From IMG/VR virus record IMGVR_UViG_3300050034_000334: a stretch of DNA of 64,000 nucleotides; one strand, written 5' to 3'. The notes beneath the pieces are model-generated. The model ran no database searches, was not told where the DNA came from, and saw nothing but the letters and a program-made list of their open reading frames with translations. How positions within the stretch are numbered: position 1 is the stretch's first letter; each line of letters opens with the position of its first letter. Of the stretch, positions 16,098 to 56,567 are shown in pieces. The translations under genes were made by a program, and so were the position numbers. Source of the stretch: a virus. Taxonomy: Duplodnaviria > Caudoviricetes.

Positions 16098-17837
16098 TTA
16101 TCTAGGAATCAATGCGTTGACCCACCAGCGAGGCAACATGCGACCCGACCGGCGGAGGAGGTTCTCGAAATCAGCATCGAGCAGCCATCCGTGAGCCTTA
16201 TCTTCCCGGGAACGAACCACACGACCGAACTCCTGAACGATCGCCAGCAGGGTCATGTAGTCATACCAGTCCTTGTCGCGCTTCATGCGCGCTTCGACAT
16301 AGGGATCGATGTAGAGGAAGGGAACCTTGATGACGATACAGAAGCGACCCAGATCTTCATTCAGATCCAGACCCTCAGTCATGGACGGAGAGATCAGCAC
16401 CGTGTCATCTTCACGCTCAGCATGCTCAAGGACAGCGGCCTCGCGGCTGCCAGTATCGCTCGTATGAGTCACGACCCGGTATCCGTGGCGAGTGGAGCGC
16501 AGATGGATGATCACCTGTTTGGCAAATTCGTAACTGTTGGTGTGGATGATTCCCTTCTTGCCGGAGTACTTGTCTAGTAGCTTCTCCACGAAGAGTACCA
16601 TCTTGGGCATGGTGAGTTCCCGCATCCGCATGCCAGTTTCCTTGTCAACTCGAGCCGCCATGCTACCAATCTTCTGGAAATACACCGGACGATTCTCGAC
16701 AGGAAAGTCACTGTCGATTCGAACACAGATTGCGTCAGCTGGGTTGATGCCCAGGTTGCGCATGAAGAAGTTGAAATCGAGGATGGTCGCGCTCATGATG
16801 ACCACCATCTCTGCCTTGTCGAACAGAATCTCATCGGCGAACATCGTGGCAGTCAGAGGCTTGATGAGCAATTCTTCCTTGGTTCCACTCCTCTTGTTCT
16901 CTTCGGTTGTGAAACAAAGCCAGTTCAGCATGTCGTCGGAAGCCATGAACCGATTCAGCCGGCAAATGAACTTGTCCCAGCTATCGAGCTTCTTGATCAG
17001 CTTCATCAGGTCTTCACGATTCTTGCCACCTTCGAGATAGGAGATGTCTGAATCGATGCGAGCCATCTCAATCTGATTGGTGAGATCAGTCATGTGCTGT
17101 TGAGCAGTGGGAATGAAAGTTTCCGACAACCACTTCTTGCACTTGAGATTCTCACCAGGCTTGAAGGTCGGGATGCGACCCAGGCCCAACTCTTCAGTCT
17201 TGTAACGAGAGATGACCGTGTCAGCGAAACCTAGAACCTGAGACTCGGTGTTATGACCTTCGTCAAGGATCAGCATCTTGCGATTCTTGAGCTGACCAGC
17301 ATACTGGGTTTCGTTCAGATAGAAAGCGAAATTCGTTACACCAATGGGGTTGTCGATGAAACGCTTCTTGGCGATCTTGTAGGGGCAGTCCATGCAGCAG
17401 GATCGATTGTCACCCTCTTTGCTGGCGTTGTTGATGATCGCCGCAGAGTCACAATCAGTATCGTGTGTTGTGCACCAGTAATTCGCTTTGCCTTTGAGTT
17501 CCAGCAGACCATTGATCTCGAAATCCTTCATGTACTGAGCGGTCAAGGTCTTTTGTGGAGAAAGGATGTAGGCACCTGGCTGAGTCAGCGGGTGATCGAC
17601 TTGGAGAGTCTTAGCCCAGGACGCGGCGGCCATTGCAATGCCAGATTTACCAGAGCCGGTCGGAGCCTCGATGATGACGAACTTCTTGTGTTCAGCATAG
17701 GCACGAGTGATTTCATCGAGTGCCACATCCTGAGCAGGTCGAATCCCTGGAAACGGAAAGTGATCCCTGATGACTGGCGAATTGAGCCAGGCAAGGTTCT
17801 TCACTGTAGGATTCAGTTGCACCAGGTCAGTTGCCAT
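16098..17837 (-). CDS. DinG/YoaA/XPD-family SF2 helicase with Fe-S cysteines
   Basis: EAPTGSGKS, cysteine cluster C..C..CC..CPY, ILDEGH, MSAT, EGLD, Q.FGR..R. Confidence 0.9.
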   Translation of the reverse strand: MATDLVQLNPTVKNLAWLNSPVIRDHFPFPGIRPAQDVALDEITRAYAEHKKFVIIEAPTGSGKSGIAMAAASWAKTLQVDHPLTQPGAYILSPQKTLTAQYMKDFEINGLLELKGKANYWCTTHDTDCDSAAIINNASKEGDNRSCCMDCPYKIAKKRFIDNPIGVTNFAFYLNETQYAGQLKNRKMLILDEGHNTESQVLGFADTVISRYKTEELGLGRIPTFKPGENLKCKKWLSETFIPTAQQHMTDLTNQIEMARIDSDISYLEGGKNREDLMKLIKKLDSWDKFICRLNRFMASDDMLNWLCFTTEENKRSGTKEELLIKPLTATMFADEILFDKAEMVVIMSATILDFNFFMRNLGINPADAICVRIDSDFPVENRPVYFQKIGSMAARVDKETGMRMRELTMPKMVLFVEKLLDKYSGKKGIIHTNSYEFAKQVIIHLRSTRHGYRVVTHTSDTGSREAAVLEHAEREDDTVLISPSMTEGLDLNEDLGRFCIVIKVPFLYIDPYVEARMKRDKDWYDYMTLLAIVQEFGRVVRSREDKAHGWLLDADFENLLRRSGRMLPRWWVNALIPR

Positions 17838-18540: not shown

Positions 18541-18903
18541 TCAGAAGAGATTGCGGGTTGGCAATCTATTTGGTCGATTTTTAAGCTCAGGGAACTCCGC
18601 CAAAGCCTCGCCATCCACTGCGATGTTGGCCGGATTCGGAGAGTCTTCAACCTTCTCGCGCTGCTTGTTAGTGTCGCGCTGATTGGTCTGATTCTCCTCT
18701 TGAACAATTCCCGTCGTGTCGTACCCATATGCCTTCTTGAGCAATTTTGAACGGAATCTGAAACCGGCTGTGACGACAGTGAAAGTCTCTCCAGGTTTCG
18801 ACTGTTTGGAAGCAGACACTTGGGCATTGCTGTCGCTTGTCGATATGAACTCCCAAGTTCCAGCAAATTCACCATCCAAGTAATATGTGGCGATGTATTT
18901 CAT
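18541..18903 (-). CDS. hypothetical protein (KxA-motif)
   Basis: GAGG RBS; contains SKLLKKA. Confidence 0.7.
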   Translation of the reverse strand: MKYIATYYLDGEFAGTWEFISTSDSNAQVSASKQSKPGETFTVVTAGFRFRSKLLKKAYGYDTTGIVQEENQTNQRDTNKQREKVEDSPNPANIAVDGEALAEFPELKNRPNRLPTRNLF

Positions 18904-18939
18904 GTCTGTCCTCTAAGAAGAGTACTGTAGTCTCTGTAT

Positions 18940-19125
18940 ATGGCCGAAATCATCATACTCGACGACATGGCTCGATACAATGCACACCTTGCCAAGTGTG
19001 ATCAGTGTTGGTATGCTAGATTTTGCTGGGATATGTGTGATAAGGGAAGGGAATTACAGGAGAAATCGTTTGCGATAAGAGTTTTGGCGACCCTGATGGG
19101 ATTTGAACCCACGTTCCCGGCTTGA
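18940..19125 (+). CDS. small Cys-rich hypothetical protein, 3' end antisense to tRNA-Glu
   Basis: 61 aa ORF with H..C..C..C..C; last 13 codons overlap tRNA antisense. Confidence 0.35.
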   Translation: MAEIIILDDMARYNAHLAKCDQCWYARFCWDMCDKGRELQEKSFAIRVLATLMGFEPTFPA

Positions 19126-19161
19126 GAGGCCAGTCTCCTAGGCCATCTAGAGGACAGGGTC
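19085..19161 (-). tRNA. tRNA-Glu(CTC)
   Basis: Cloverleaf GACCCTG/CAGGGTC, loop CT-CTC-AA, TTCAAAT T-loop, encoded CCA. Confidence 0.95.
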
Positions 19162-19174
19162 GTATGTGGAAAGT

Positions 19175-19251
19175 TGGTAGCGTGTATGGGATTTGAACCC
19201 ATGATTCCCTGCGTGAAAGGCAGATGTCCTTGACCACTAGACGAACACGCC
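19175..19251 (-). tRNA. tRNA-Glu(TTC)
   Basis: GGCGTGT/ACACGCT, loop CT-TTC-AC, encoded CCA. Confidence 0.95.
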
Positions 19252-19338
19252 ACAGTCAAATTCTATCCCGGATGATTGAGTCGTCCAGCGGTGTTTTCCT
19301 GGCATGGATAACGCTGAACAGTTCGACCCGGGAATTTC

Positions 19339-19414
19339 TGGTGGAGATAACTGGAGTCGAACCAGTGGCCTCCGCAGTGCGAGTGCGGCGCTCTCCCAAC
19401 TGAGCTATACCCCC
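19339..19414 (-). tRNA. tRNA-Ala(CGC)
   Basis: G3:U70, A73, loop CT-CGC-AC, encoded CCA. Confidence 0.95.
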
Positions 19415-19434
19415 GAAAAACTGCTACAAAACTT

Positions 19435-19510
19435 TGGTGGAGACAGAGGGGTTCGAACCCCCGACCTCTTGCTTGCAAAGCAGGCGCTCTCCCAACTGAG
19501 CTATGCCCCC
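19435..19510 (-). tRNA. tRNA-Ala(TGC)
   Basis: G3:U70, loop TT-TGC-AA, one C-A mismatch in anticodon stem, encoded CCA. Confidence 0.93.
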
Positions 19511-19616
19511 ACGATGTCAGACAACAGCGCCTGACGGATAAATTCATCAGCATGAGAGGCGTCGAGTCGAGCCAAGCTCTGATCTCGTCCCTCTGGTTCA
19601 TACTGCCTTGAAGTCT

Positions 19617-19692
19617 TGGTGGAGATGACAGGGTTCGAACCTGCGACCTCAACGCTGCCAGCGTCGCGCTCTCCCAACTGAGCTACACCCCC
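19617..19692 (-). tRNA. tRNA-Ala(GGC)
   Basis: G3:U70, loop CT-GGC-AG, encoded CCA. Confidence 0.95.
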
Positions 19693-19889
19693 ACTATCAC
19701 GAAGATACCACTGTGCCGCAAGCCTCTTGTGTACGCTATTCAAATCGGCATCCAAATGTTCCTTCATGGTTCTCTCCATACTCAATCTTGGAGCGGGTTT
19801 CCAGGTTTCCCTGTTTCATGAACTGGCTCCATCCTGCAGGAACAGATAACCAGACATGCTTCCTTGCGGAAGCCCGCATATCAAAAAGT

Positions 19890-19966
19890 TGGCGGGGCCG
19901 ACGAGACTTGAACTCGCGACTTCTTGCGTGACAGGCAAGCACTCTGACCAGCTGAGCTACGACCCC
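19890..19966 (-). tRNA. tRNA-Asp(GTC)
   Basis: GGGGTCG/CGGCCCC, G73, loop CT-GTC-AC, encoded CCA. Confidence 0.95.
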
Positions 19967-20760
19967 GCATTGTGCTTGTCATATATCTGAAACAGATCAG
20001 AGATAGCCAAGCCAGAAAACTTTTCAGCAAATGCAAATACTTCGGATAGATCACTTTCAAAAAGGAAAGTCACATTTGGATGAGCCTTTTGTTTTGCCTC
20101 AGTTTGAGCAGAAGGCCATCCCTTGATTTCTATGAGTTTCCCATCCACTTCAAAGTCAGGAAAGAATTTCTTAAAAGATCCTTGGAATTCGTACTTCAAC
20201 CCCAGCCTATTTCTCTGGATTGATTTCCCATTTTCTAGACACCAAATCAAGAAAGCACATTCCCAAGTTGATTGAACTAGAAATCCTCTGAATCTTCCTT
20301 GTTTTCCTCTTCCTCCCTTTTCTCGAAAACCACCTATCCTATTTGAGTTGTGAATACCCAACATCCGAATCATTCGTACACAATCATCCGAGCAAGTTAT
20401 CCTCCCCTTTAAGGAAGGTTTCCCACAATATTTGCAAGGAACAGGAACTCGATTTCTGTCCCTTTCCTGCCGCTCTTTGCTTCGTATCTCTAGGATTCTC
20501 TTGTGACTTTCAGGACTCCAAGGATTCCTTGAAGCAAAACTACGAGCACAGGATATCTTGCAAAACCGTTCTTTCTCTCCCTCCTTAATCTCTTTTTGGA
20601 AGGTAGTGTTACAATTCTCGCAAACAAACTGGCAAGTGATCCGATTATTACAACAAGGTTTCTTAATTCTAGGTCGCAGAGAACAGTTCCGGATATGCGC
20701 TCCCCAAACTTGACCCCTTTCGTTCCCCCTCATCAATCTGCACCACTGGCACTGACTCAT
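19957..20760 (-). CDS. putative homing endonuclease, PD-(D/E)xK type with N-terminal Cys-rich zinc fingers
   Basis: STWE...PDF...IEIKGW nuclease motif; several CxxC pairs; AT-rich; sits between tRNA-Gly and tRNA-Asp. Confidence 0.75.
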   Translation of the reverse strand: MSQCQWCRLMRGNERGQVWGAHIRNCSLRPRIKKPCCNNRITCQFVCENCNTTFQKEIKEGEKERFCKISCARSFASRNPWSPESHKRILEIRSKERQERDRNRVPVPCKYCGKPSLKGRITCSDDCVRMIRMLGIHNSNRIGGFREKGGRGKQGRFRGFLVQSTWECAFLIWCLENGKSIQRNRLGLKYEFQGSFKKFFPDFEVDGKLIEIKGWPSAQTEAKQKAHPNVTFLFESDLSEVFAFAEKFSGLAISDLFQIYDKHNAGS

Positions 20761-20762
20761 GA

Positions 20763-20796
20763 TTCCGACCTCCTATAATCAAATAGGAAGTCGGAA
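20763..20796 (-). promoter_or_regulatory. 14-bp hairpin sequestering the endonuclease Shine-Dalgarno
   Basis: TTCCGACTTCCTAT-ttgatt-ATAGGAGGTCGGAA-tc-ATG; AGGAGG lies in the 3' arm. Confidence 0.8.
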
Positions 20797-20803
20797 TTCA
20801 AAG

Positions 20804-20875
20804 AGCGGGTAGTCAGATTTGAACTGACGCATGATAGAGTGGAAGTCTATTGCCTTACCACTTGGCGATACCCGC
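20804..20875 (-). tRNA. tRNA-Gly(TCC), no encoded CCA
   Basis: GCGGGTA/TACCCGC, U73, loop CT-TCC-AC. Confidence 0.92.
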
Positions 20876-20892
20876 AACTTGTACAACAAAAT

Positions 20893-20967
20893 TGGAGCGG
20901 CGGATGGGATTTGAACCCACGACCTCTTGCTTGGCAAGCAAATGTTCTACCACTGAACTACCACCGC
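20893..20967 (-). tRNA. tRNA-Gly(GCC)
   Basis: GCGGTGG/CCGCCGC, U73, loop TT-GCC-AA, encoded CCA. Confidence 0.95.
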
Positions 20968-20972
20968 TCATC

Positions 20973-21083
20973 TGACGTGAATGAGTTTCGATTCATGTCT
21001 GGAATGCGCCCCCATAAACCCACCGCGATTGCCCCAATGGGCTTATGGTGGAGCAGATAACCCAAACACATCGACTCACGTCA
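20973..21083 (-). ncRNA. long imperfect hairpin between permuted tRNA-like RNA and tRNA-Gly
   Basis: TGACGTGA/TCACGTCA outer helix; inner 14-bp CCATAAGCCCATTG/CGGTGGGTTTATGG. Confidence 0.55.
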
Positions 21084-21088
21084 TAAAT

Positions 21089-21232
21089 CTCTGCACGAAC
21101 GAAAAGTGAACTTCGTTTTTTAAGGCGTCCTAACCCCTAGACGACAGCCCCATGATTTGGCGGGGCCACCAGGATTCGAACCTGGGTATCCTCCTTGACA
21201 GGGAGAACAAAATTCTGACGGCTCGTGCAAAA
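21089..21232 (-). ncRNA. circularly permuted tRNA-Asp(GTC)-like RNA (Y RNA YrlA-like, two-piece or permuted tRNA; class unresolved)
   Basis: Order on minus strand: anticodon arm (21206-21190), ATAC, T-arm, TGGCCCC-G-CCA (to 21158), linker AATCAT, GGGGCTG (from 21151), D-arm; leader and trailer pair in two further helices. Confidence 0.8.
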
Positions 21233-21236
21233 CCTT

Positions 21237-21314
21237 TGGTGCGCCGTCAGGGATTCGAACCCCGGACCTACTGCTTGTAAGGCAGCCGCTCTAACCGGAC
21301 TGAGCTAACAGCGC
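21237..21314 (-). tRNA. tRNA-Val(TAC)
   Basis: GCGCTGT/ACGGCGC, loop CT-TAC-AA, encoded CCA. Confidence 0.95.
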
Positions 21315-21327
21315 ACATCTTAGTACC

Positions 21328-21358
21328 AAAACGAAAAGGACAGCCGCTTGGGCTGTCC
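21328..21358 (-). terminator. intrinsic terminator-like hairpin just upstream of tRNA-Val
   Basis: GGACAGCC-caagc-GGCTGTCC then TTTTCGTTTT. Confidence 0.7.
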
Positions 21359-21870
21359 TTGGTTGAATCTCGCTGAAGTTTAGCTGATTCGCACCAAGGA
21401 CAGATGCCCGGTATCCACGCCCTCCGCTGCTTCAGCGGCGACGACCGTTGCAACTGCTCCGACGAATTCAACCATGCTCTTCATGACAATCTCCATAATA
21501 CTACGGATTTGCTCTCCGTAAACTACTATTTTTGCCACCAGGCAAAAGATTTCGCGTGTAGGAGGATGATAGCCCAGACACTGGTGACCAGATGTGACTA
21601 TCACCACTACACGCATCTCAAACTTTGCGACGGAGTTTAGCACCCTCTAAAGTGTCGCTCACTCCATCGTTCAGGAAGGTTTCGCACTTTCGCGTACACC
21701 TACAACCCTGTCATCTAGGACATCGCTGTTATGCTAGTTCATCGAAGCTCAATTTGTCGGCGACCCGCTCTGGTCGTCCTGCGCTTCTGTTCGATCTTCC
21801 GACATGTTTCCATGCCTACCGTCTTCGAATTTCAGACCGCTCTGGTCGTCCTGCGCTATCGCCTGATTAC
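21359..21870 (-). ncRNA. candidate large structured non-coding RNA
   Basis: About 510 nt with no convincing long ORF; many helices, H-type pseudoknot pattern, 21-nt direct repeat, ends at a terminator. Confidence 0.45.
21765..21857. repeat. 21-bp direct repeat, 2 copies, 51 bp apart
   Basis: ccgctctggtcgtcctgcgct at 21765-21785 and 21837-21857. Confidence 0.95.
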
Positions 21871-21872
21871 CT

Positions 21873-22256
21873 CTACGGAGCAACTTGGGAAAACGGGTAA
21901 TCCTTGTCATCTTTGATGATTTTCACTTCAATGAGAGAGTCTTTAAGCTGATCGTAAACCTCAGGCGAGATATTGACACAACCCTCAGTCACGTTCCTTC
22001 TCTGTAAAGGATCAGCGGAATCCAATCGTTCCTCACGATGCTGAGAAGGAATTAGAAGCCACGTTCGATGGATAGCATACACTCTGTCTGGTAGCTCATC
22101 AAACACAAGAATGTCTCCGCCGTAGCCAGGAGCCTTAGTGCTTTTATGAACCACGGAGAAATCACCAGTCGGAGTTAATCTGCCGACCAAGGCCGGGTAG
22201 CAGTGGCCTTGGAAACAGATCAACGCCGAGTTGAGAAGAATAAAAGCGACGATCAT
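21873..22256 (-). CDS. L,D-transpeptidase (YkuD-like) catalytic domain protein
   Basis: LVG..TPTG.F, YAIHRTW ... TEGCVN His/Cys motif; hydrophobic N-terminus. Confidence 0.8.
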   Translation of the reverse strand: MIVAFILLNSALICFQGHCYPALVGRLTPTGDFSVVHKSTKAPGYGGDILVFDELPDRVYAIHRTWLLIPSQHREERLDSADPLQRRNVTEGCVNISPEVYDQLKDSLIEVKIIKDDKDYPFSQVAP

Positions 22257-23251
22257 TACTGGCTAATCTTCTTGGTTTCTTGTGGAAACACGGTGTAAGC
22301 AGGAACAGGAACAGGAGTTGGAGACGTAGCTGTCGCCGGCACTGGTGATGCTGGAGGCATCGCAACTGTGGGAGTTGTCACAACCTGAGGAGGAATAATG
22401 GATTGTGGCTGTTGTGTAACTGGCGCTGCTGGAGATGATGCGACGACTGGATTCGTCATCTCGGCCACCTGAGCATCGGAGATTTGGACAGCCATAACGA
22501 TCAGACCTTCTTTGTAAACAGGTCCTGCTGTCGCATGGTTGAGACCAGTTCCGGCACTGTATGCCTGAGATCCCGTAGCAGCGGAGCCGGTCAAAGCTGC
22601 ACCGACCGCGCCCATGCCAACTCCCCATCCCGTGGTTGTGGTGCTTGTCGTTGTCACCTTCTTAACCAAGAAGATACCGTTCGCATGCATGTGCAGCGTC
22701 TCGATCACCGCCTTGGCAATCACGTCGATAGTGTTGGATTTCTTTCCACCTTGAAGGAAGATGTACCCAACGCGAGAAAACTTGGAGTCATCGAAAACCA
22801 GGATCGGTTTTCCATTTTCCTCAACGATTCTCCCATCCTTACCGATGAGTGCCTTCGTCGGCAGAGACTTGAGAATTTTGCAGGTGCTGAACTGATAACT
22901 GCCGTCAGCCATCCTGTTGACTCGTGCCGACACCCCTCCGTTGTACATCTGCTTGGCCTCGCCGAGAGTGATTTCTTCGGGCAAAGAGACCAGGTTATCC
23001 ATGATATTGGCGCCTGTGCTCCACGGCCCCAGATACACTTCCACTGGCGCTTGATAGGGTGCTACTGGTGATGCAAACCACCGACCCGTACTCGGATCAG
23101 AAGCTGCATAGTTTTGGTTGACCACCGACGATGACCCTGCTGTTGCTCCCGATGTTGCTCCGGATGTCGTCATAGTCTGTGCGAATGTCGTAGCCACCGC
23201 GAATGCCATTAATGCGATTGTGGTAGCAGCAAGTAACCTCTTCACGTTCAT
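22256..23251 (-). CDS. secreted/envelope protein with signal peptide
   Basis: Sec signal ending TFA|Q; Thr/Gly-rich alternating segment; Pro/Thr-rich tail; AAGGAGA RBS. Confidence 0.8.
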   Translation of the reverse strand: MNVKRLLAATTIALMAFAVATTFAQTMTTSGATSGATAGSSSVVNQNYAASDPSTGRWFASPVAPYQAPVEVYLGPWSTGANIMDNLVSLPEEITLGEAKQMYNGGVSARVNRMADGSYQFSTCKILKSLPTKALIGKDGRIVEENGKPILVFDDSKFSRVGYIFLQGGKKSNTIDVIAKAVIETLHMHANGIFLVKKVTTTSTTTTGWGVGMGAVGAALTGSAATGSQAYSAGTGLNHATAGPVYKEGLIVMAVQISDAQVAEMTNPVVASSPAAPVTQQPQSIIPPQVVTTPTVAMPPASPVPATATSPTPVPVPAYTVFPQETKKISQ

Positions 23252-23961: not shown

Positions 23962-24280
23962 AAACTCTCCTAAAGCGAGACGCTGGTTGTGAGATTACCT
24001 CGATGGGCAATCTAGTGAACTACTTCGCGATTCCGCGATAGGATCTTACGGCATCGCACTACGGAACTTCTACGAGTATCAATTTCAAAACGGGTACATC
24101 CTGCAGAATGTTTTTCATAATTTTCATCATGTAGGATTATCTCTTCCAACGCTTTCGTTGGCGACCGCTCAGGTCTTCCCGCGCATCAGGTTTAGTCCTT
24201 GTGAGATTGCACCCTGATCGCACTTGGTAGACCGGCGCTGGTCGCCCAACGAGACTCTACGCAATAAGTTATGGAAACGG

Positions 24281-24532
24281 TTACAGAGCAGTATCCTTCG
24301 GAGGCTGAGGCTGCTCTTTGGGAGGCAAGCTAGCAGTCTTGAAGACCGGAGGAGGCAAGTTGGCAGTGAAGCTCTTGAAGTCTGCAATCAGCAAATTCAA
24401 GAACTTGTAGATGAAGACGTACCAACCGCTCGATGCCGTAGTTGGAACTGGCAGAGACTGAATCAAAGCTGAGGCAACCTGATTTACCACGTAGAAAATC
24501 AGAAGCCATTGGACAGGAATTGTTGTCGACAT
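24281..24532 (-). CDS. small membrane protein (holin-like candidate)
   Basis: Two hydrophobic segments, Pro-rich charged C-terminus. Confidence 0.55.
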   Translation of the reverse strand: MSTTIPVQWLLIFYVVNQVASALIQSLPVPTTASSGWYVFIYKFLNLLIADFKSFTANLPPPVFKTASLPPKEQPQPPKDTAL

Positions 24533-24634
24533 AAGAACCCCCACTGGAGAGGGGTTGGAAATCAAAAAGAGGGTGTAAGAATCCTCCTCCACAGAGAATC
24601 CCTACACCCTAACCCGCAAAATACTTCAAGTTTC

Positions 24635-25564
24635 TTAGACCCGCTTCTCACCATGAGGCAGTTGCTTCAACGTCCACTTGGCGATCAGTTCGTCCATCAT
24701 CTCAATACTGGATTCGACCTGTCTCTGCTCGTAAGTGCACCTGGAAATTGCGCTGGTCCGGATGTGTTCGTACCGGGTTGTGCCACGAGCGTATTTGCGA
24801 AATTCGTTGTTGCCATTCACGCGAACGATTTCGGTCTGTTCGTCAGCAACCTGATTGTGAAGGTCCAGGATGCTCTGAATGAGCTCATCGCGCTTCCTGT
24901 TCAGAGTGATCTTGTAGGCTTCGCATCCTTCTGTACCCAGTTCGTACGGCAGGAATCCAACGCCAGGGCAGCTACCAACGCGGCAACCGTAGTAGTGGCC
25001 GGTGCCACCGGAGATCTCGAAACCGTGGTGAACCATCTTGCGGCTGGCGTTTGTCTTGTAAAGACCACCGCATACCGGGCAGGTGCCGGTGTTCGTGAGA
25101 TCGATCACGGTCGGATTGATTGCCGGCTTGCGACCCTTTTCGATGAAGGACTTGGTGGACTTCACCAGTTCGGCGAGCATCGCGGCTTCGGTCAGTGTGG
25201 CGATGTACTCAGCCAGTTCCGGAGCATTCTTGACAACCTTCATCCGTTTCAGGAATCCAGGTGTATTTGAGAAAGCCGCGATTCCCAGGTTGTGGCGGGG
25301 ATCGGTATCTGACCAGGTGCAGAAGAGCTCGCTGCCACCGCAGGGATAGTAGAAATCGCGGAGAGGGTCAGAAAGAACCTCTTCAACCTTGTCCCAGACG
25401 TTGGAGATGGTGGACTTGGCGTTCTCGTAATCAACATTCCAGATGTGCTTGTCAGCCAGCCCTGCCTCAAAGATCGCCTTTGCTTCAGCAAACTTCTGCA
25501 CGCTGAGATAGGTGGGAACCTTGCTGTTGAGGAGGATGTCCGTAATTTTTGGGGTGCTGATCAT
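24635..25564 (-). CDS. hypothetical protein with Zn-binding motif
   Basis: GTCPVCG...HHGF...SCPG. Confidence 0.8.
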   Translation of the reverse strand: MISTPKITDILLNSKVPTYLSVQKFAEAKAIFEAGLADKHIWNVDYENAKSTISNVWDKVEEVLSDPLRDFYYPCGGSELFCTWSDTDPRHNLGIAAFSNTPGFLKRMKVVKNAPELAEYIATLTEAAMLAELVKSTKSFIEKGRKPAINPTVIDLTNTGTCPVCGGLYKTNASRKMVHHGFEISGGTGHYYGCRVGSCPGVGFLPYELGTEGCEAYKITLNRKRDELIQSILDLHNQVADEQTEIVRVNGNNEFRKYARGTTRYEHIRTSAISRCTYEQRQVESSIEMMDELIAKWTLKQLPHGEKRV

Positions 25565-26315: not shown

Positions 26316-29300
26316 CTAACTGCATCCAGTTGTTTGTCCACAATCGTTGCACTTTTCACAGGTTCCGGATCTCACCATGTGCATAGATCCGCAAGCACCA
26401 CAGGAGTTCCCAGTGAAACCACTGCGCTTGGCTTCACTGGCCTCTGATACGGTTGGCAAACGTGTTTCTTTGTCTACTAACAGCCCCAATGATTTCACCT
26501 TTTCCTTGTCCTCAGGTTTGATGTGGGCAAGGTCATAGCGATCCAGATAGGTGATTGCCAACTCACGGAAGACATAATCCATCAGAGAAGTGGCATTCTT
26601 GACATAGCTGGAACCCTGAACAAATCCAGAAGGTTCAAACTTGGTGAAAGTGAACGCATCCACAAACTCCTCGAGCGGAACGCCGTACTGCAATCCCAGA
26701 CTGATGGCGATAGCAAAGCAGTTGAGGAGAGAACGCAAGGTTGCTCCCTCGCGACTGACATCGATGAAGACCTCTCCCAACCTGCCATCCTCGTACTCCC
26801 CGGTGTGCAGATAGAGGGAATGATCGCCAATTTTGGCCTTCTGTACAAATCCATGGCGACGGTATGGTAGACGCTTGCGAAATCCTCGAGCTAATGCTTC
26901 TGCCAAGACAGCAGCTTTTGTGTCGTTGTTGGCACCGCTGGTGAGCACTTCAACTTCCTTCTCATCCAGGCCCTCCAGCAGCTGCATGTTTGTGGCTAGA
27001 GCCTGTGACATCTTGGATCCGTCACGATACAGAGCCACTGCTTTGATGCCAAGTTCCCACGCCAACAGATGAATGTCATTGAAGTCTTGTTGAGTAGAGT
27101 TGGCCGGGAGATTTACAGTCTTGCTGATAGCTCCTGAAATGAAGGGTTGAACAGCTGCCATCATCTCCACATGAGCACGTGGAGAGATGAAACGAGTACC
27201 ATTTTCACCACACTTGTTGGCACAATCGAACACGGCCAAGTGAGCATTCTTCAAGGCCGGTGCCCCTTCGATGGTCTTCTCGTTCTCGATGTGCTTGAGG
27301 ATCTCAACCACTTGTTCGTCCGTGTACCCCAAGTTCTTCAAGGCCGGAGGGACAGACTGATTGACTATCTTGAAGTATCCTCCACCGGCCAACTTCTTGA
27401 ACTTCACCAGAGCATAGTCAGGTTCCGCTCCCGTCGTGTCGCAATCCATCACCAACCCGATGGTCCCTGTCGGAGCCAAGCAGGTGCTCTGGGCATTCCT
27501 CAACCCGAATTCCTCAACCTGAGACACTACCTTGTCCCAGATGTCACGAGCCTGAGTGACCAGCTTTCTTGGTCCACGATAGAGAAGTTTCAGACCCACA
27601 GGAGTAGTTGAAAGCCCATCGTATCCAAGCTCTCCATTGTAAGCAGCCGAACGATGGTTCCGCATCACTTTCAAGACAACCTCTCGATTTTCATCATAGC
27701 CAGGAAACACTCCCAACTTCTGAGCCAAATCTGAGGATGTCAGGTACGATTCACCTGTCATGATGGCAGTGATGGCCGCAGCCCAGTTTCGGCCGGTCTC
27801 ACTGTCATAAGGAAAGCCCAGCTGCATGAGCATGGCGCCAAGGTTCGCGTATCCCAAGCCCAGGGTGCGGAACTTGTATGACAACTCAGCAATCGAGGGT
27901 CCTGGGAACTGAGCCATCGTTACAGAAATCTCTAGAGCGATGGTTGTCAAACGGCAGCAATGGCGGAAGGCCTCGACGTTGAACTCTCCGTCTTCCAGGA
28001 ACTTCACGAGATTTGAGGAAGCCAGATTGCAGGCAGTGTCATCCAGGAACATGTACTCGCTGTTGTGTATAAACACACCAGAAAAGTTGTCGTGACCATT
28101 CACACAAGACGGTTTTGACGAAGTGAAAACAGCAAAGTTGTGGGTATTGTCTACCGTACCATCGTAGACGTCTTCATTACCACAGAACTCTACCGAAACA
28201 ACCGTATGGTTGAAGTTGACCACGGCCTCTTGTAGTAACTCATCAGTGGGGTACCAACGAACAATAGTGTCTTTTGTGGGAAATTTCTTCACTCCAAGTT
28301 GCTTTGCTACATCTCGTAGTTCTTCCCAATTTTCTAGAGAAAAAGAAACTCCATTATCTTGAAAAGTTCGAGCAACCTCAGCAATCATACCCTCGATTAA
28401 ACGCTTCGAGTGACGTTCTCCAAACATTTGTTTACCAAGTGGAGATCTCTGACATTCAGTACCACAGCAAATCTGATCCTCCAAAATGGTGATGAAATTA
28501 CCACGGCATATAGGGCAGCAACGCTCAAATCGTTCAGCAGTTACTGTACGACCAATATGCCTACCCTCTGATCGCATTTTTGTTTGTGTTTCTCTTATAG
28601 ATCTACTCAACTGTTCGTGTTGTTGGTGGTCTTCCCATCTAGAAACTGCAGAATTACTCATATTCTGTTTGGAAACTTCACTGTGCTGTTTTCCAAACAT
28701 AGGGTTAAGTTCACCAGTGATTGATTTTGAAATGTTGGCACGCCATTCATCATTCATTAAACGACGGGCTGGATTATTGTCACCAAGCATTGATTCCCGA
28801 TGCAAAGCTGCATGATCCTTCGCAGACAATAGCTTGAAATTTTGTGGGTTATCATTCAGAGCATCAAAATCAGAGTGATGAATGTGATAACCTTCCGGTG
28901 CTTGACCAAAAAAGAAATCGTTAATTAAACGATACTGCTGAGCCCAACGAGTACCTCCCCACACATTTCTACGACGCGTGGCTCCTTTTCCATTTTGGAT
29001 TATGGAAGAGTGAAAAGGCATAAGAGAATCACCAGGTTGTAGGTCTATAACCTTTCGGTATGAACCATCCCGCAGCATCATAAGTTCGTCGTCAGTAACA
29101 CGTAGGCTACTTCCATCGTCAAACGTAACGCAGAAAATGGGAGCATTAGTTCTTTTAACTCCAATATTCCACATCAATTCTATTGAAGTCTTTTGCGTCC
29201 TGTGATTCCTGGTAAACACAGGCACTTCTGTTCCTACCAAATCTCTAATAGGAACCGCTGTACGACCATCTGCTACAGCCACCAAAGTCTCCCCAGTAAC

Positions 29301-30710
29301 ACAGCACGGATTGCTGGCATTGATTCTTCCGGAATTCAGACAAGTGTGCCAGTCATTGATGGTCGTGTCGAACTGGATCCCAGGATCTGCACAAAGGAAA
29401 GAAGCCCGGTTGATCTGATCAAACAACTTCTTGGCCTTAAGAGTCTTGGCCACTTCCCCGGTGGTGCGGAAGGTCAGATTCCAGTCCCTGTCCTTTTTGA
29501 CGGCATGCATGAATTCATCTGTGACACGAATTGTGTTGTTGGCATTCATGCCTGAGACTGTCTGGTATGCCTCTCCCTCCCAGTTCAGATCGTACAGAGG
29601 AAGATCGTCAGTGAAGTCAGATTCAGACAAACGAGTCAGACACTGCCCTAGAAATGCTCCAGGCACTCCCATTTTTCTGGCATGGCTGATGACTTTGGCA
29701 AGCTCCTTGTTCTCTTTCGGATTTGCCTTCAAAGCCAAATCTTTGGAAGTGAAGGTGTTGTAAGCCTCCAGCATCTCTCCCCAGATGGTGCGAAGGAGTT
29801 GACTGCCAGCAGCCATTGCAACAACCTTGCGCTCTTCATTCACCTTCCAGTTGATGAAGGCCTCTACATCGGGATGGTCCACATTGAGAACAACCATCTT
29901 GGCTGCTCTGCGGGTGGTTCCTCCAGACTTCACTCCTCCGGCTCCGACGTCTCCCACCTTCAACCAAGACATGAGACCTGAGCTCTTTCCGCCGCCGCTC
30001 AAAGGTTCTCCATATCCACGCAGGGCAGAGAAGTTGGATCCTGTTCCGGAGCCATACTTGAACAAGCGAGCCTCGCGATGGAACAGGTCGAAGATTCCTC
30101 CAGGATTGACGAGGTCGTCTTTCACTCCCTGAATGAAGCAGGCATGAGGCTGAGGACGCTTGTACGCAGAATCGCTCACGGTCAACTCTTTGGTGCCGTC
30201 GTCGACATAGTAGTGACCCTGTGGATCTCCCTCAATTCCGTATGCCCAGTACAAGCCGGTATTGAACCACTGAGGGGAATTGGGAGCAACGTACTGCATC
30301 ACCACCATGTAGAGCATCTCGTCGTAGTAGGCTTGGGCGTCTTTCTCTGAAGAGAAGTATCCGTATTCCTCTCCCCACCCAGTCCAGCAACCTACGATTC
30401 TATGAGCAGTCTGTCTCACATCAGTTTCGTAAGTGATCCCATCCGGATGGTCCAGCTTGGAGGCCCACTCGGTGGAGTACTTGCTGTTGTAAAGGGAGTT
30501 GGGGTGGTTGTGATTCACTCCTTGCCGGCGGAAATACTTCTGGGCAAGGATATCCAAGGCAGTCTGAGACCAGGATTCTGGCACGATGACATTGTCGTTC
30601 TCAAAAACCACAGAATTGTCTGGTCTAACGATGTTGGAGCATCTCCGTATGAAGCTGATGCCCTCTAAAGGCGACTGTCCGGCCTTGGTGAAAATTCGCT
30701 TTACCTTCAT
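26316..30710 (-). CDS. nrdJ: class II (adenosylcobalamin-dependent) ribonucleotide reductase, intein-containing
   Basis: PNSP.WFN, ACFI, TRRAAKM, NPC|SEY, ACNLAS, GLGYANLG, IAPTGT-like LAPTGT, ISKTVN, C-terminal TSCPD-like domain and Zn ribbon. Confidence 0.95.
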   Translation of the reverse strand: MKVKRIFTKAGQSPLEGISFIRRCSNIVRPDNSVVFENDNVIVPESWSQTALDILAQKYFRRQGVNHNHPNSLYNSKYSTEWASKLDHPDGITYETDVRQTAHRIVGCWTGWGEEYGYFSSEKDAQAYYDEMLYMVVMQYVAPNSPQWFNTGLYWAYGIEGDPQGHYYVDDGTKELTVSDSAYKRPQPHACFIQGVKDDLVNPGGIFDLFHREARLFKYGSGTGSNFSALRGYGEPLSGGGKSSGLMSWLKVGDVGAGGVKSGGTTRRAAKMVVLNVDHPDVEAFINWKVNEERKVVAMAAGSQLLRTIWGEMLEAYNTFTSKDLALKANPKENKELAKVISHARKMGVPGAFLGQCLTRLSESDFTDDLPLYDLNWEGEAYQTVSGMNANNTIRVTDEFMHAVKKDRDWNLTFRTTGEVAKTLKAKKLFDQINRASFLCADPGIQFDTTINDWHTCLNSGRINASNPCCVTGETLVAVADGRTAVPIRDLVGTEVPVFTRNHRTQKTSIELMWNIGVKRTNAPIFCVTFDDGSSLRVTDDELMMLRDGSYRKVIDLQPGDSLMPFHSSIIQNGKGATRRRNVWGGTRWAQQYRLINDFFFGQAPEGYHIHHSDFDALNDNPQNFKLLSAKDHAALHRESMLGDNNPARRLMNDEWRANISKSITGELNPMFGKQHSEVSKQNMSNSAVSRWEDHQQHEQLSRSIRETQTKMRSEGRHIGRTVTAERFERCCPICRGNFITILEDQICCGTECQRSPLGKQMFGERHSKRLIEGMIAEVARTFQDNGVSFSLENWEELRDVAKQLGVKKFPTKDTIVRWYPTDELLQEAVVNFNHTVVSVEFCGNEDVYDGTVDNTHNFAVFTSSKPSCVNGHDNFSGVFIHNSEYMFLDDTACNLASSNLVKFLEDGEFNVEAFRHCCRLTTIALEISVTMAQFPGPSIAELSYKFRTLGLGYANLGAMLMQLGFPYDSETGRNWAAAITAIMTGESYLTSSDLAQKLGVFPGYDENREVVLKVMRNHRSAAYNGELGYDGLSTTPVGLKLLYRGPRKLVTQARDIWDKVVSQVEEFGLRNAQSTCLAPTGTIGLVMDCDTTGAEPDYALVKFKKLAGGGYFKIVNQSVPPALKNLGYTDEQVVEILKHIENEKTIEGAPALKNAHLAVFDCANKCGENGTRFISPRAHVEMMAAVQPFISGAISKTVNLPANSTQQDFNDIHLLAWELGIKAVALYRDGSKMSQALATNMQLLEGLDEKEVEVLTSGANNDTKAAVLAEALARGFRKRLPYRRHGFVQKAKIGDHSLYLHTGEYEDGRLGEVFIDVSREGATLRSLLNCFAIAISLGLQYGVPLEEFVDAFTFTKFEPSGFVQGSSYVKNATSLMDYVFRELAITYLDRYDLAHIKPEDKEKVKSLGLLVDKETRLPTVSEASEAKRSGFTGNSCGACGSMHMVRSGTCEKCNDCGQTTGCS
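28062..29303 (-). mobile_element. intein (414 aa) with HNH endonuclease and NUMOD3-like segment
   Basis: Begins CVTGETLV, ends VYDGTV..THNF...FIHN|S; HIHH.D....ND...N...H HNH motif; AT-richer than exteins. Confidence 0.92.
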
Positions 30711-30895
30711 GCTATTGTGTCCTTGGGTATGGGGGATTTCGAGGGTCAGAAATCGTACGTGATGATTCAATACTCAGCCTATGAAAGATTGGTTACAAGT
30801 TACCGATTACCAAGGTGGTTACTCACTCGGGTGCGTATTTCTTCATGCGGCGAAAGCATCGCCAAACGCTGGTCTCACTGGTAGGATGGATAAGT

Positions 30896-55555: not shown

Positions 55556-55640
55556 CCCAGTTTACTGACACAAGTCTGAACTTCGCAGTATTAGAGAGGT
55601 GAGCAGAACATCGTTCACCTTTTCTATTGCGAGGATTCCA

Positions 55641-56567
55641 ATGAACGTCTTCACCGTTTATAAAACCGTCAATCTGATCAATCATCGCTATTATCAAGGA
55701 GTCCACGAAACTTCTAATCCCAACGACAGCTATCTAGGTTCCGGCATCGTTCTCACAAGAGCCGTAGCCAAGTATGGTGCCAGCAACTTCTCCAAAGAAA
55801 TCTTATTCGTATACAACACAGCAGAAGAAGCCTTCTCCAAAGAGGTCGAACTTTGCGCTATTTCCAAAAATGATCCTCTTTGCTACAATCTACATCCCGG
55901 TGGCAAAGGAGGTTTCAAGTTCATACTAGATCATCACCTGATGACTCCAGTACCCAAAGAATTCCTCACAGGTCGCAAGCCCGGTTCCAAGAATCTCATT
56001 GTCCCTGTCACAATATTTCCTGAACCAGTTTGTAAGTACGGATGTGGACTAGGAGCCAGGTTTCTTCTTGGAGAGAAAGGCACTCCTTGCTGCTCTGATC
56101 ATTCTGGTAAGTGTGCCGGATATAAAGCCTCAAAGAAGTCCACCAAAGTGAAACGAATCTATAAACAAGAGTTGATCTGTTTCTACGGATGTGATAGGTC
56201 TGCCAGCTATCTTCTAGGAGTTAGTGAGAAACCTTGTTGTTCCAAATCCTTTTACGATTGTCCTGGTCACTGGAATAATAGACCGAGCATATCTCTTCCG
56301 GAAATGAGAGCAAAATCAGAGATTACTATGTTGAAGAGGTACGGAGTAGTTAATCCGTCATCGGATCCTGAACTTCTCGCTAAAAGAACAGCAACTAATG
56401 TTAGACTCTATGGAGGAGCCAGCCCCACCTGTGATTCCACCGTTAATCAAAAGCGCATTCGTACCAACAAGAAACGCTTTGGTGGCAACGCTCCAGCCTG
56501 TTCTAAGGAAATCAGGGACAAGATGAATGCTACTCGGAGGAAATCCAAACTTCTCCCCTCTTCTTAG
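55641..56567 (+). CDS. GIY-YIG homing endonuclease with two Cys-rich zinc modules
   Basis: VYKTVN....YYQGVH..Y.GSG, YNL..GG; C..GC...CCS...C.G twice; KRYGV.NP tail. Confidence 0.88.
   Translation: MNVFTVYKTVNLINHRYYQGVHETSNPNDSYLGSGIVLTRAVAKYGASNFSKEILFVYNTAEEAFSKEVELCAISKNDPLCYNLHPGGKGGFKFILDHHLMTPVPKEFLTGRKPGSKNLIVPVTIFPEPVCKYGCGLGARFLLGEKGTPCCSDHSGKCAGYKASKKSTKVKRIYKQELICFYGCDRSASYLLGVSEKPCCSKSFYDCPGHWNNRPSISLPEMRAKSEITMLKRYGVVNPSSDPELLAKRTATNVRLYGGASPTCDSTVNQKRIRTNKKRFGGNAPACSKEIRDKMNATRRKSKLLPSS

Follow-up and report, generated by a model that had tools for sequence, protein, structure and literature searches.

A sorted array of nine tRNA genes in a peat-soil jumbo phage lies behind a probable leader-peptide attenuator

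The window, the 64,000-nucleotide stretch of DNA analysed here, belongs to a peat-soil jumbo-phage record (G000) of 187,058 bp. Since the record is linear and about 60% complete as estimated by CheckV, further tRNA genes must lie beyond it. tRNA genes were called with ARAGORN and Rfam RF00005 (gathering score 29 bits). We found that the whole record carries 31 tRNAs in four arrays, and that these serve at least 17 amino acids within the roughly 60% of the genome that is seen. Four extra calls made by an intron-allowing ARAGORN run on the record were regarded as false. When 20 kb of the window was compared with 50,697 phage records by megablast there was no match, and relatives were reached through proteins. 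The peat/permafrost origin and a kinship with an Acidobacteriota phage are no more than hints to the host.

Nine of the tRNA genes form one array at 19085-21314 on the minus strand (Table 1). All nine score 54-73 bits against RF00005 and have anticodons assigned by ARAGORN, which marks them as canonical elongator tRNA genes; by our reading of the sequence eight of the nine encode CCA. In the order of transcription they are Val(TAC), Gly(GCC), Gly(TCC), Asp(GTC), Ala(GGC), Ala(TGC), Ala(CGC), Glu(TTC) and Glu(CTC). ARAGORN and RF00005 therefore agree with the original prediction, which had described nine tRNAs with anticodons that all end in C36 and with isoacceptors grouped. The record's GNN decoders all lie inside this array, and the array holds no other tRNA type. 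Its neighbours are replication genes (helicases, ribonucleotide reductase), not virion genes.

Table 1. Positions of the features of the array and its leader in the window
Feature	Position	Strand	Basis
Promoter-like motif AAATCC-GTAG-TATTAT, just upstream of the leader ORF	21495..21510	-	
Leader ORF, 34 codons and stop, MKSMVEFVGAVATVVAAEAAEGVDTGHLSLVRIS	21380..21484	-	ATG start
Antiterminator 5' strand (region 2) GGCAUCUGUCCUUGGU, inside the last codons of the leader ORF	21393..21408	-	
Region 3/4 terminator AAGGACAGCC-caagc-GGCUGUCCUU, then UUCGUUUU	21326..21362	-	stem 21360-21336
tRNA-Val (TAC), first gene of the unit	21237..21314	-	ARAGORN, Rfam 70.1 bits
Structured spacer, 269 nt, with permuted tRNA-Asp-like module, then long hairpin	20968..21236	-	sequence reading, fold
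tRNA-Gly (GCC)	20893..20967	-	ARAGORN, Rfam 72.8 bits
tRNA-Gly (TCC), the only one of the nine without encoded CCA	20803..20875	-	ARAGORN, Rfam
267-aa ORF inserted in the array; stop codon within tRNA-Asp	19957..20760	-	
tRNA-Asp (GTC)	19890..19966	-	ARAGORN, Rfam 67.1 bits
tRNA-Ala (GGC)	19617..19692	-	ARAGORN, Rfam
tRNA-Ala (TGC)	19435..19510	-	ARAGORN, Rfam
tRNA-Ala (CGC)	19339..19414	-	ARAGORN, Rfam
tRNA-Glu (TTC)	19175..19251	-	ARAGORN, Rfam
tRNA-Glu (CTC), last gene of the array	19085..19161	-	ARAGORN, Rfam

The grouping of the nine GNN genes is far beyond chance by post hoc odds. Drawing nine named genes from 31 has a chance of 1 in 20,160,075. Since isoacceptors sit together, the fairer null counts amino-acid families (5 of 17) and gives 1 in 6,188, and at this level too the set is as unlikely by chance as had been proposed. 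Nor is it an arbitrary slice of the tRNA complement, since sorting is seen both in the survey of the whole record and in relatives. The other three arrays of G000 hold Tyr/Leu/Ser (the class II tRNAs), Arg/Lys/Asn/His/Gln/Trp/Met and Pro/Phe, and relatives share these themes and have an Ile/Thr/Gln array in addition. The original prediction that arrays are sorted genome-wide thus holds in that they are themed and common to relatives, but the sorting is not by first codon base, and the ANN, CNN or UNN row expected in each of the other arrays is not what they contain.

The spacer between tRNA-Val and tRNA-Gly (GCC) is predicted to fold stably (dG -107 kcal/mol, z -4.9). At about 21140-21210 we read a circularly permuted tRNA-Asp-like module with a CTGTCAA loop that contains GTC. 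Its parts follow in the order anticodon arm with GTC, T arm, 3' acceptor with CCA, 6-nt linker, 5' acceptor and D arm. The permuted RNA with a GTC loop that had been noticed earlier is therefore present, but it scores only 23.5 bits as a linear tRNA in Rfam, which is below threshold, and is not a canonical tRNA gene.

The 267-aa ORF is Cys-rich at its N-terminus and occurs once in the record. In the sister strain G001 a tRNA-Val(GAC) is found at its site, with flanks that are 99.8% identical between the two strains on one side and unrelated on the other, and a contig from an RNA library joins across the insertion place without the ORF. Pfam gave no significant family for it, and PHROG a marginal match only (phrog_218 'head closure', E 6e-4). 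Its language-model neighbours are phage clusters named 'endonuclease fused to N-terminal Zn finger' (0.92-0.95), which we take as a lead only. It is probably a mobile endonuclease gene. Its presence in one strain and absence from the same site in the sister strain resembles the segB type of T4.

Upstream of tRNA-Val lies a short ORF, which we call the leader, that ends 65 nt before the tRNA gene. We found that 19 of the 22 codons in its core (codons 5-26, 21472-21407) are GNN, and that all five amino acids of the array are represented. Its GNN content is the highest of the record's 1,132 small ATG ORFs, with 19 against a mean of 6.4 and a maximum of 19. Three codons of the core, one for Phe and two for Thr, have no matching tRNA in the array, and the leader has five GUY Val codons even though the strain lacks tRNA-Val(GAC). 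G001 encodes the same leader peptide, with 96% identity at the nucleotide level. At the promoter-like motif of Table 1 a sigma-70-like TTTACG-16-TATTAT is found, and in most relatives, at least 12, the homologous leaders follow a related motif, AATAC-N3-4-GTAT(T/C)A. No clear ribosome-binding site is seen for the leader, and if TATTAT is a -10 element, its mRNA may be nearly leaderless. RNA-library contigs from four studies span the leader, the terminator and tRNA-Val and start at 21472-21477, which is weak evidence for the unit and a weak hint to the promoter; such contigs across a terminator cannot show regulation. In three of four runs the RNA libraries hardly cover the bins upstream of 21477, which we did not take as evidence. 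Part of the very high RNA-library depth over the Ala tRNAs is due to other organisms, as loose ends show.

Between the leader and tRNA-Val lies the only terminator-like site within 18800-22300, a 10-bp GC-rich stem followed by a U-run whose tail ends 12 nt before the tRNA gene. The 5' arm of this terminator, together with the preceding CC, also forms the 3' strand of a predicted antiterminator. When the full-length leader is folded the terminator forms. When the terminator 3' arm is left out, region 2 pairs with the terminator 5' arm instead (dG -42 kcal/mol, z -4.6). Across genomes the antiterminator appears in 12 of 13 minimum-energy folds. Counting only unambiguously aligned core pairs in re-cut segments of a MAFFT alignment of 13 genomes, we found six pairs of the terminator core and seven of the antiterminator core to be 100% paired, three in each with compensatory changes; these co-variation counts are uncorrected for phylogeny and only about 5-6 independent events lie beneath them. 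Alignment column 68 changes jointly with both its partners, and the region-3 columns of the antiterminator also covary with the terminator 3' arm. The inner antiterminator helix visibly covaries and was left out of the pair counts. The terminator is present in 13 of 15 genomes; G004 and G007 have leaders matched to their arrays and no obvious intrinsic terminator behind them.

The array and its leader change together in relatives. A homologous Val/Gly/Asp/Ala/Glu array is retained, next to other themed arrays, in 13 contigs of related jumbo phages (46-95% identity in the helicase). Homologous, mostly GNN arrays are found in G001, G004-G012 and G015-G018, and on the helicase tree the phages with sorted arrays form a single clade (99/98). 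At the far end, the Glu(TTC)-Glu(CTC) pair also closes the array of a 66%-identity relative (L013), which is known there by its last two genes only. In 15 of 15 genomes examined a Val tRNA comes first after the leader. Homologous ATG leader ORFs of 32-48 codons precede the first Val tRNA in 14 further genomes and end 42-165 nt before it, with the exception of G006 (474 nt). The leader thus keeps an ATG start, an open frame and a similar length in 15 genomes while its peptide sequence drifts. We found that the codons of the leaders follow the content of the arrays. At least one Cys codon is present in the leaders of 11 of 11 arrays with tRNA-Cys and none in the three lineages without it. Ala codons number 4-9 if the array that follows has Ala tRNAs and 0 if it has none (G004, G007), and there are 3-4 Ile codons where tRNA-Ile is present (G004, G007, G016) against 0-1 elsewhere. 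The helicase tree implies that there would have been several separate events of change in leader and array.

The same arrangement is seen at other arrays. A short ORF rich in the amino acids of its own array ends 57-111 nt upstream of each of the four G000 arrays. In a cross-match matrix the own array has the highest share for three of the four leaders; the leader of the Pro/Phe array has more Arg than Pro and Phe together. Composition-matched leaders also stand before other arrays of the relatives and in the outgroups G003 and Tunturi 5, whose arrays are mixed. The latter, a Tunturiibacter phage (PP885688; PMC11924767), is the nearest cultured relative, with a helicase 37.5% identical and 41-43 tRNA genes.

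We consider it likely that the nine tRNA genes are one transcription unit gated by a leader-peptide transcription attenuator. On this model, transcription from the promoter just upstream would yield an RNA that begins with a 34-codon mini-gene whose core consists almost wholly of Val, Gly, Asp, Ala and Glu codons. Were this mini-gene read fast, ribosomes would cover its last codons, the terminator would form and transcription would stop before tRNA-Val. Were charged GNN-decoding tRNAs scarce, a ribosome would stall, and the last codons would be left free to pair with the terminator 5' arm. With the antiterminator so formed, polymerase would continue into the tRNA genes, and the array would act as a self-correcting supply loop for one codon set. 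Sorting would then follow from the leaders, each tRNA going with the unit in whose leader its codons are sampled. The genes, the ORF, the terminator and the alternative pairing, with their conservation and co-variation, are seen in the sequences; we infer translation of the leader ORF, control of read-through by stalling and a signal that is a scarcity of tRNA rather than of amino acids. The original prediction did not include the leader ORF and the terminator, to which the array owes its unity.

The attenuator accounts for the coherence of the set, not for its being the G row of the code. In relatives, homologous arrays also hold tRNAs outside this row, namely Cys(GCA) in 11 genomes, Ile(GAT/TAT) in three, Phe(GAA) in two and a TTA suppressor in one, and therefore C36 is not the membership rule. 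The purity of C36 in nine of nine genes is specific to the lineage of G000. It is best explained by inheritance of a Val/Gly/Asp/Ala/Glu theme, ancestrally with Cys, from the ancestor of a clade of phages of about 300-460 kb, with the pure state arising in the G000 lineage when Cys left the unit. The lesson we draw is that the C36 pattern is a consequence of operon membership and of descent, not of an anticodon rule. A bolder reading is that the clade has about five self-regulating 'codon regulons', each leader a test strip for the codons of its tRNAs, and that the complete G row was grouped for function, as a natural unit of decoding demand or ribosome sensing, and not by historical accident. 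We regard this as unlikely. As reasons for the five-amino-acid grouping, recent paralogy, co-demand and a class of proteins rich in the five amino acids found no support.

The proposal that the mini-ORF is no sensor, only a promoter-proximal hairpin or processing signal, with the array content a frozen accident of rearrangements, is in our view unlikely. It would fit the fact that part of the GNN richness of the leader doubles as a GC-rich hairpin, as well as the two relatives that lack a clear terminator. An Asp-Cys adjacency is common to the GNN-array homologues and to the mixed array of the outgroup G013, and therefore some of the membership is plain linkage. Against it stand an ATG frame that stays open at similar length in 15 genomes while the peptide drifts, rare Cys codons exactly where tRNA-Cys lies downstream, with Ala and Ile codons behaving likewise, and matched leaders before arrays of quite different content. 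Timed supply, in which the array would be co-expressed with a class of phage genes, such as the virion genes, that most need Ala, Gly, Val, Asp and Glu, appears less likely still. These five are among the commonest amino acids (5.4-7.2% each, together 33% of codons), and a promoter for each array would allow separate timing. Against this, the supply for proteins rich in these residues that had been suggested finds only an ordinary GNN share of 33% with little spread between ORFs (median 0.33, sd 0.046 or 4.6%, range 0.21-0.43), amino acids of the same array co-vary no more than random partitions over 168 phage ORFs (p = 0.73), and the array sits among replication rather than virion genes. When ten large ORFs were annotated with PHROG, names were obtained for a tail sheath, a transglycosylase and two homing endonucleases only, which is not enough to compare virion with other genes.

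We think it very unlikely that the array arose by tandem duplication of one tRNA gene with changes at anticodon position 35, so that C36 would be a mark of descent. The anticodons would allow it, as Ala NGC, Gly NCC, Val NAC and Asp/Glu NUC differ only at position 35, and isoacceptors are adjacent; the extra isoacceptors of relatives (Val CAC, Gly CCC, a second Asp, Cys or Glu) lie within the homologous array, which fits local duplication. Yet identity between GNN tRNAs that serve different amino acids is no higher than identity between GNN and non-GNN tRNAs (0.623 against 0.630 in G000, and likewise in four other genomes), and the class II and basic arrays cannot be derived in this way. Least probable of all, and in our view highly improbable, is counter-defence, in which the array would stand in for host tRNAs lost to, or inactivated by, a nuclease or modification system directed at C36 or at G-starting codons. 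Phage tRNAs do rescue translation from anticodon nucleases, as in T4 with PrrC and T5 with PARIS. PMC13096335 reports T6 tRNA-Tyr acting against Septu. In Tunturi 5 an RtcB-type ligase and a CCA-adding enzyme adjoin the tRNAs of this distant relative. The tRNAs for at least 17 amino acids nevertheless make the supply general rather than targeted, and a system keyed to C36, as suggested in the original prediction, is at odds with the Cys, Ile, Phe and suppressor tRNAs in homologous arrays. We know of no nuclease keyed to C36, and a literature search found none.

The attenuator that we favour resembles the enterobacterial leaders trpL, hisL, leuL, thrL, ilvL and pheL in its codon-rich short ORF, its terminator before the genes and its mutually exclusive antiterminator that involves the 3' end of the ORF. 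As in the ilv and thr leaders, several amino acids would be sensed at once. Since the genes downstream are nine tRNA genes, and not genes for biosynthesis or aminoacyl-tRNA synthetases, it is not a member of the classical attenuators. Unlike the enterobacterial leaders, which precede biosynthetic enzymes, it would adjust decoding capacity and not amino-acid supply. It also differs from them in being phage-encoded, in occurring once per array, in sampling five or six amino acids, in having its stop codon in the antiterminator loop and in an mRNA that may be nearly leaderless. A full-text literature search found no published leader-peptide attenuator of tRNA genes. T-box riboswitches likewise are cis-acting leader RNAs in which a terminator/antiterminator choice reports the charging state of tRNA, but they bind uncharged tRNA directly via a specifier codon, without translation, and control genes for aminoacyl-tRNA synthetases and amino-acid metabolism. 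T-box models gave no match at the array/leader locus.

Known phage tRNA clusters (T4 with segB, T5, KVP40 and the array units of mycobacteriophages; PMC6409571) are also dense one-strand runs, interrupted by free-standing ORFs like homing endonucleases, with a content that varies by strain. However, that survey reports isotype synteny only, and its text is without sorting by codon set or control by leaders, whereas the complement of the G000 clade is split into about five themed units that are kept across the clade. The long tRNA array of cyanobacteria (the Anabaena trn operon; PMC8421152, PMC10272220) is likewise accessory, silent by default and switched on under translational stress. In contrast to the G000 array it is mixed and unsorted and is controlled by a protein repressor, TrcR, and the text of the paper has no leader, attenuator or stalling terms.

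The usual view of phage tRNA genes is that they are a fixed supplement to match codon bias, or that they serve as decoys for defences that cut tRNA. The case of G000 suggests a demand-controlled supply, in which matching tRNA genes would be transcribed only when codon reading is slow. If true, the classical attenuation switch would here be put to a new use, and the themed blocks in large phage tRNA complements would be explained. That leader composition predicts array content offers a simple annotation rule for hundreds of metagenomic jumbo phages. The paper on Tunturi 5 (PMC11924767) lists its tRNAs and describes no sorting or leaders. In this phage the GNN tRNAs are spread over two mixed arrays, unlike those of G000. 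As in G000, a class II plus Cys array and a Trp/Asp/Met/Lys/Val/Arg/Glu array each lie behind a composition-matched mini-ORF and a terminator-like hairpin, and since these matched leaders are present in a cultured phage the idea can be tested at the bench.

Nine tRNA genes lie on the minus strand at 19085-21314, with ARAGORN and Rfam in agreement, and are transcribed in the order Val(TAC), Gly(GCC), Gly(TCC), Asp(GTC), Ala(GGC), Ala(TGC), Ala(CGC), Glu(TTC), Glu(CTC). The original prediction that every tRNA of this array decodes a GNN codon, and thus carries an anticodon ending in C36, was confirmed (9/9). Reading of the sequence indicates that CCA is encoded in eight of the nine genes. Two elements interrupt the array, a structured spacer and a 267-aa ORF. 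The spacer has a very stable fold (dG -107 kcal/mol, z -4.9), and its sequence and fold read as a permuted tRNA-Asp-like cloverleaf with a long closing helix and a CUGUCAA loop, beside a second long hairpin. In Rfam the permuted module reached only 23.5 bits, scored as a linear tRNA, and the spacer had no YrlA match.

The record of this phage (G000; 187,058 bp, 49.9% GC, linear, about 60% complete by CheckV) encodes 31 tRNAs, all on a single strand and in four arrays. By our own arithmetic at the level of amino-acid families, the chance that one block holds exactly the five GNN families among 17 is 1 in 6,188, and we therefore consider the sorting real. This upholds the proposal that tRNAs are sorted genome-wide but not the rule offered for it, first codon base, since the three other arrays do not follow codon rows. 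No tRNA for Thr, Ile, Cys or Ser(UCN) was found among the 31 in the 187,058-bp record; these presumably sit in the unsequenced 40% of the genome. Apart from Met, the amino acids of array 2 (Arg, Lys, His, Asn, Gln, Trp) are exactly the six with side-chain nitrogen, a theme also seen in the related genomes G004, G009 and G012.

Features of the tRNA arrays, their leaders and neighboring or related loci (window coordinates unless another source is named)
Feature	Coordinates	Strand	Description
GNN array	19085-21314	minus	all GNN decoders of the record, no other tRNA
Array 2	G000 genome 70538-76477		Arg, Met, Trp, Gln, His, Asn, Lys, Met, Lys, Arg, Arg; outside the window
Tyr/Leu/Ser array			Tyr, Leu x5, Ser; exactly the long-arm class II tRNAs
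Pro/Phe array			Pro, Phe, Pro, Pro
Conserved motif	21495-21510	minus	AAATCC-GTAG-TATTAT; related to the partly palindromic AATAC-N3-4-GTAT(T/C)A of relatives; upstream of leader ORF
Leader ORF	21484-21380	minus	MKSMVEFVGAVATVVAAEAAEGVDTGHLSLVRIS; 65 nt before tRNA-Val
Terminator-like site and U-run	21360-21336	minus	between leader ORF and tRNA-Val; the region's only one
Structured spacer	20968-21236	minus	269 nt; between tRNA-Val and tRNA-Gly(GCC)
267-aa ORF	19957-20760	minus	between tRNA-Gly(TCC) and tRNA-Asp; Cys-rich N-terminal motifs
Helicase	16098-17837	minus	adjoins GNN array
Class II ribonucleotide reductase	26316-30770	minus	1,484 aa; intein with HNH and NUMOD3 endonuclease motifs
Homing-endonuclease ORF	55599-56567		
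Homing-endonuclease ORF	57018-58007		
Site with tRNA-Val(GAC) in sister strain G001	L009 5260-5460		in the place of the 267-aa ORF of G000
Tunturi 5 gp308	PP885688.1 (L003) 251573-251722		annotated 49-aa 'hypothetical protein'; rich in K, R, D, W, V, M, E
Tunturi 5 unannotated ORF	about 231156-231254		MKTLCLSSYCLSSSLSLSDGWDLRTGRDADMI; before Leu/Cys/Tyr/Ser array
tmRNA gene of G003	L004 6723-7099	plus	tag peptide AVNNSGRNAEIATYTVALNRVAVPVA (ARAGORN)

Upstream of tRNA-Val lies a 34-codon leader ORF in which 19 of the 22 codons from position 5 to 26 are GNN, with all five array amino acids represented. Its GNN richness tops that of 1,132 small ORFs of the record. When the RNA was folded without the 3' arm of the terminator, the last codons of the leader (21408-21393) and the terminator's 5' arm formed a long helix (dG -42 kcal/mol, z -4.6), while the full-length RNA folded into the terminator. 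In these predicted folds the leader, terminator and alternative helix, a putative antiterminator, have the layout of a classical attenuator. Each of the record's three remaining arrays is likewise preceded, 57-111 nt upstream, by a short ORF enriched in the amino acids of its own array. The predicted switch would work like the trp, his, ilv and thr leaders; unlike in those systems, the regulated genes are phage tRNA genes, and for this reason we do not class it as a classical attenuator. Full-text literature searches turned up no account of tRNA operons gated by a leader, nor of phage tRNA clusters sorted by codon set.

A DNA-level search of GenBank phages returned no close relative of G000. 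The helicase next to the array has 800 homologues, many from contigs of 300-460 kb; among isolates, Tunturiibacter phage Tunturi 5 comes nearest (37.5% helicase identity). We compared tRNA gene content in 17 IMG/VR relatives and in Tunturi 5 and found a homologous array kept in 13 contigs (helicase identity 46-95%), with a Val tRNA first and Glu mostly last. A fourteenth occurs in G002, where it is cut off after Asp; the same six downstream genes are retained. The relatives' arrays hold 10 to 17 genes, all GNN decoders except for a few intruders, namely Cys(GCA) in 11 genomes, Ile in G004, G007 and G016, Phe in G004 and G015, and a TTA suppressor in G004. Sorted relatives also keep the themes Tyr/Leu(/Ser), Pro/Met/Phe, Ile/Thr/Gln and Trp/His/Arg/Asn/Gln/Lys; mixed arrays are found in the more distant G013, G014, G003 and Tunturi 5.

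In the helicase tree the sorted genomes form a single clade (support 99/98), inside which G004, G000 and its sister strain G001 group together (99/99); all three lack Cys in their arrays. Because the Cys-less genomes group in this way, the ancestral theme is GNN plus Cys and the pure C36 state of the window is derived, so we dropped C36 as a criterion of membership. tRNA-Cys comes immediately after tRNA-Asp in the 40-gene mixed array of the outgroup G013 (L123), and it does so too in most of the sorted GNN arrays (G005, G006, G008-G012, G015 and G017). Since outgroup and sorted arrays share this adjacency, linkage to Asp may have brought Cys into the GNN unit.

Leader ORFs, picked by position or by GNN content, lie directly before the first Val tRNA in 14/14 further genomes. 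Their codons follow the tRNAs downstream: one or two Cys codons occur with each of the 11 arrays that contain tRNA-Cys and none in the three lineages without it, and four to nine Ala codons occur where Ala tRNAs lie downstream; in G004 and G007 the sole Ala tRNA is upstream of the leader or absent, and the leader has no Ala codon. Ile codons number 3-4 with tRNA-Ile and 0-1 in other genomes; Phe codons track tRNA-Phe less cleanly. Placed on the helicase tree, this pattern implies several separate co-changes of leader and array.

Both terminator and antiterminator were found in 13 of 15 genomes. Counted on a re-cut alignment, the terminator core (six pairs) and the antiterminator core (seven pairs) were each 100% paired, against 33-71% in all slid controls, and in each helix three pairs had both partners substituted. 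A single column of the shared strand varies jointly with its partner in each helix; such change with both partners is the mark of a two-state switch. Composition-matched leaders are also found ahead of other arrays in relatives, and ahead of the mixed arrays in Tunturi 5 and G003. From the end of gp308 to the Trp/Asp/Met/Lys/Val/Arg/Glu array of Tunturi 5 is 114 nt, with a terminator-like hairpin in the gap. As matched ORFs precede two of its arrays, leader-gated tRNA arrays seem to exist in this cultured phage.

Recent paralogy, by which the GNN tRNAs would have arisen through changes at position 35, was not supported: similarity among GNN tRNAs for different amino acids (0.623) is no higher than that between GNN and non-GNN tRNAs (0.630). 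Nor did we find support for the suggestion that the set serves proteins rich in Ala, Gly, Val, Asp and Glu, since GNN makes up 33% of all codons with small spread, and amino acids of the same array do not co-vary across ORFs. The idea that the set replaces tRNAs hit by a nuclease keyed to C36 is contradicted by the non-C36 intruders in the relatives' homologous arrays. The original observation stood, while its interpretations were supported in part only. Part of the membership of the GNN array looks like plain linkage, because the Asp-Cys adjacency recurs in the mixed array of G013.

That the leader ORF is no sensor is unlikely, because its Cys, Ala and Ile codons co-vary with the array. If a leader samples a set, relocating a tRNA would require matching changes in two leaders, and this need for a double change may freeze the partition of tRNAs.

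Between G000 and G001 the leader and the Asp-to-Glu stretch are 96-99.8% identical, and the DNA from Val to Gly(TCC) is unrelated (window 19974-21327, G001 contig 24025-25441). The unrelated cassette spans the leader's terminator to tRNA-Asp, and only Val and Gly tRNAs lie in the replaced piece. Cassette exchange also reshapes the GNN array. The 267-aa ORF, whose stop codon falls within tRNA-Asp, has phage Zn-finger endonucleases as language-model look-alikes and is probably a homing endonuclease driving the exchange. Five GUY codons persist in the G000 leader, whose peptide is identical to that of G001, though tRNA-Val(GAC) sits in G001. Mobile endonucleases are abundant in the G000 genome, as the ribonucleotide reductase intein and two further ORFs illustrate.

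The motif upstream of the leader has a conserved counterpart, AATAC-N3-4-GTAT(T/C)A, within the 60 nt before leaders in L102, L104, L108, L110, L114, L117, L119 and L125-L127, at a variable 6-26 nt from the ATG and often with (T/A)AGAGAC after it. The motif may act as a promoter specific to the clade, in which case the mRNAs would be nearly leaderless in some genomes. Contigs from metatranscriptome libraries of four peat/permafrost studies cover parts of the GNN array; those that span the leader, terminator and tRNA-Val start at 21472-21477, and in two of them adapter sequence lies immediately beside 21472. This is a weak hint of a transcription start near the leader, as such contigs cannot prove transcription, ends or regulation.

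No suppressor-type tRNA was found in the 187 kb of G000. Such tRNAs are present in G003, G004, G008-G010, G012 and G017 (L005, L096, L100, L109, L112, L116, L120, L129), with anticodons CTA (often in 2-3 copies) and TTA, and TCA in G004; one or more stop codons may therefore be decoded as sense in these jumbo phages. The 360-kb relative G003 also carries a tmRNA gene.
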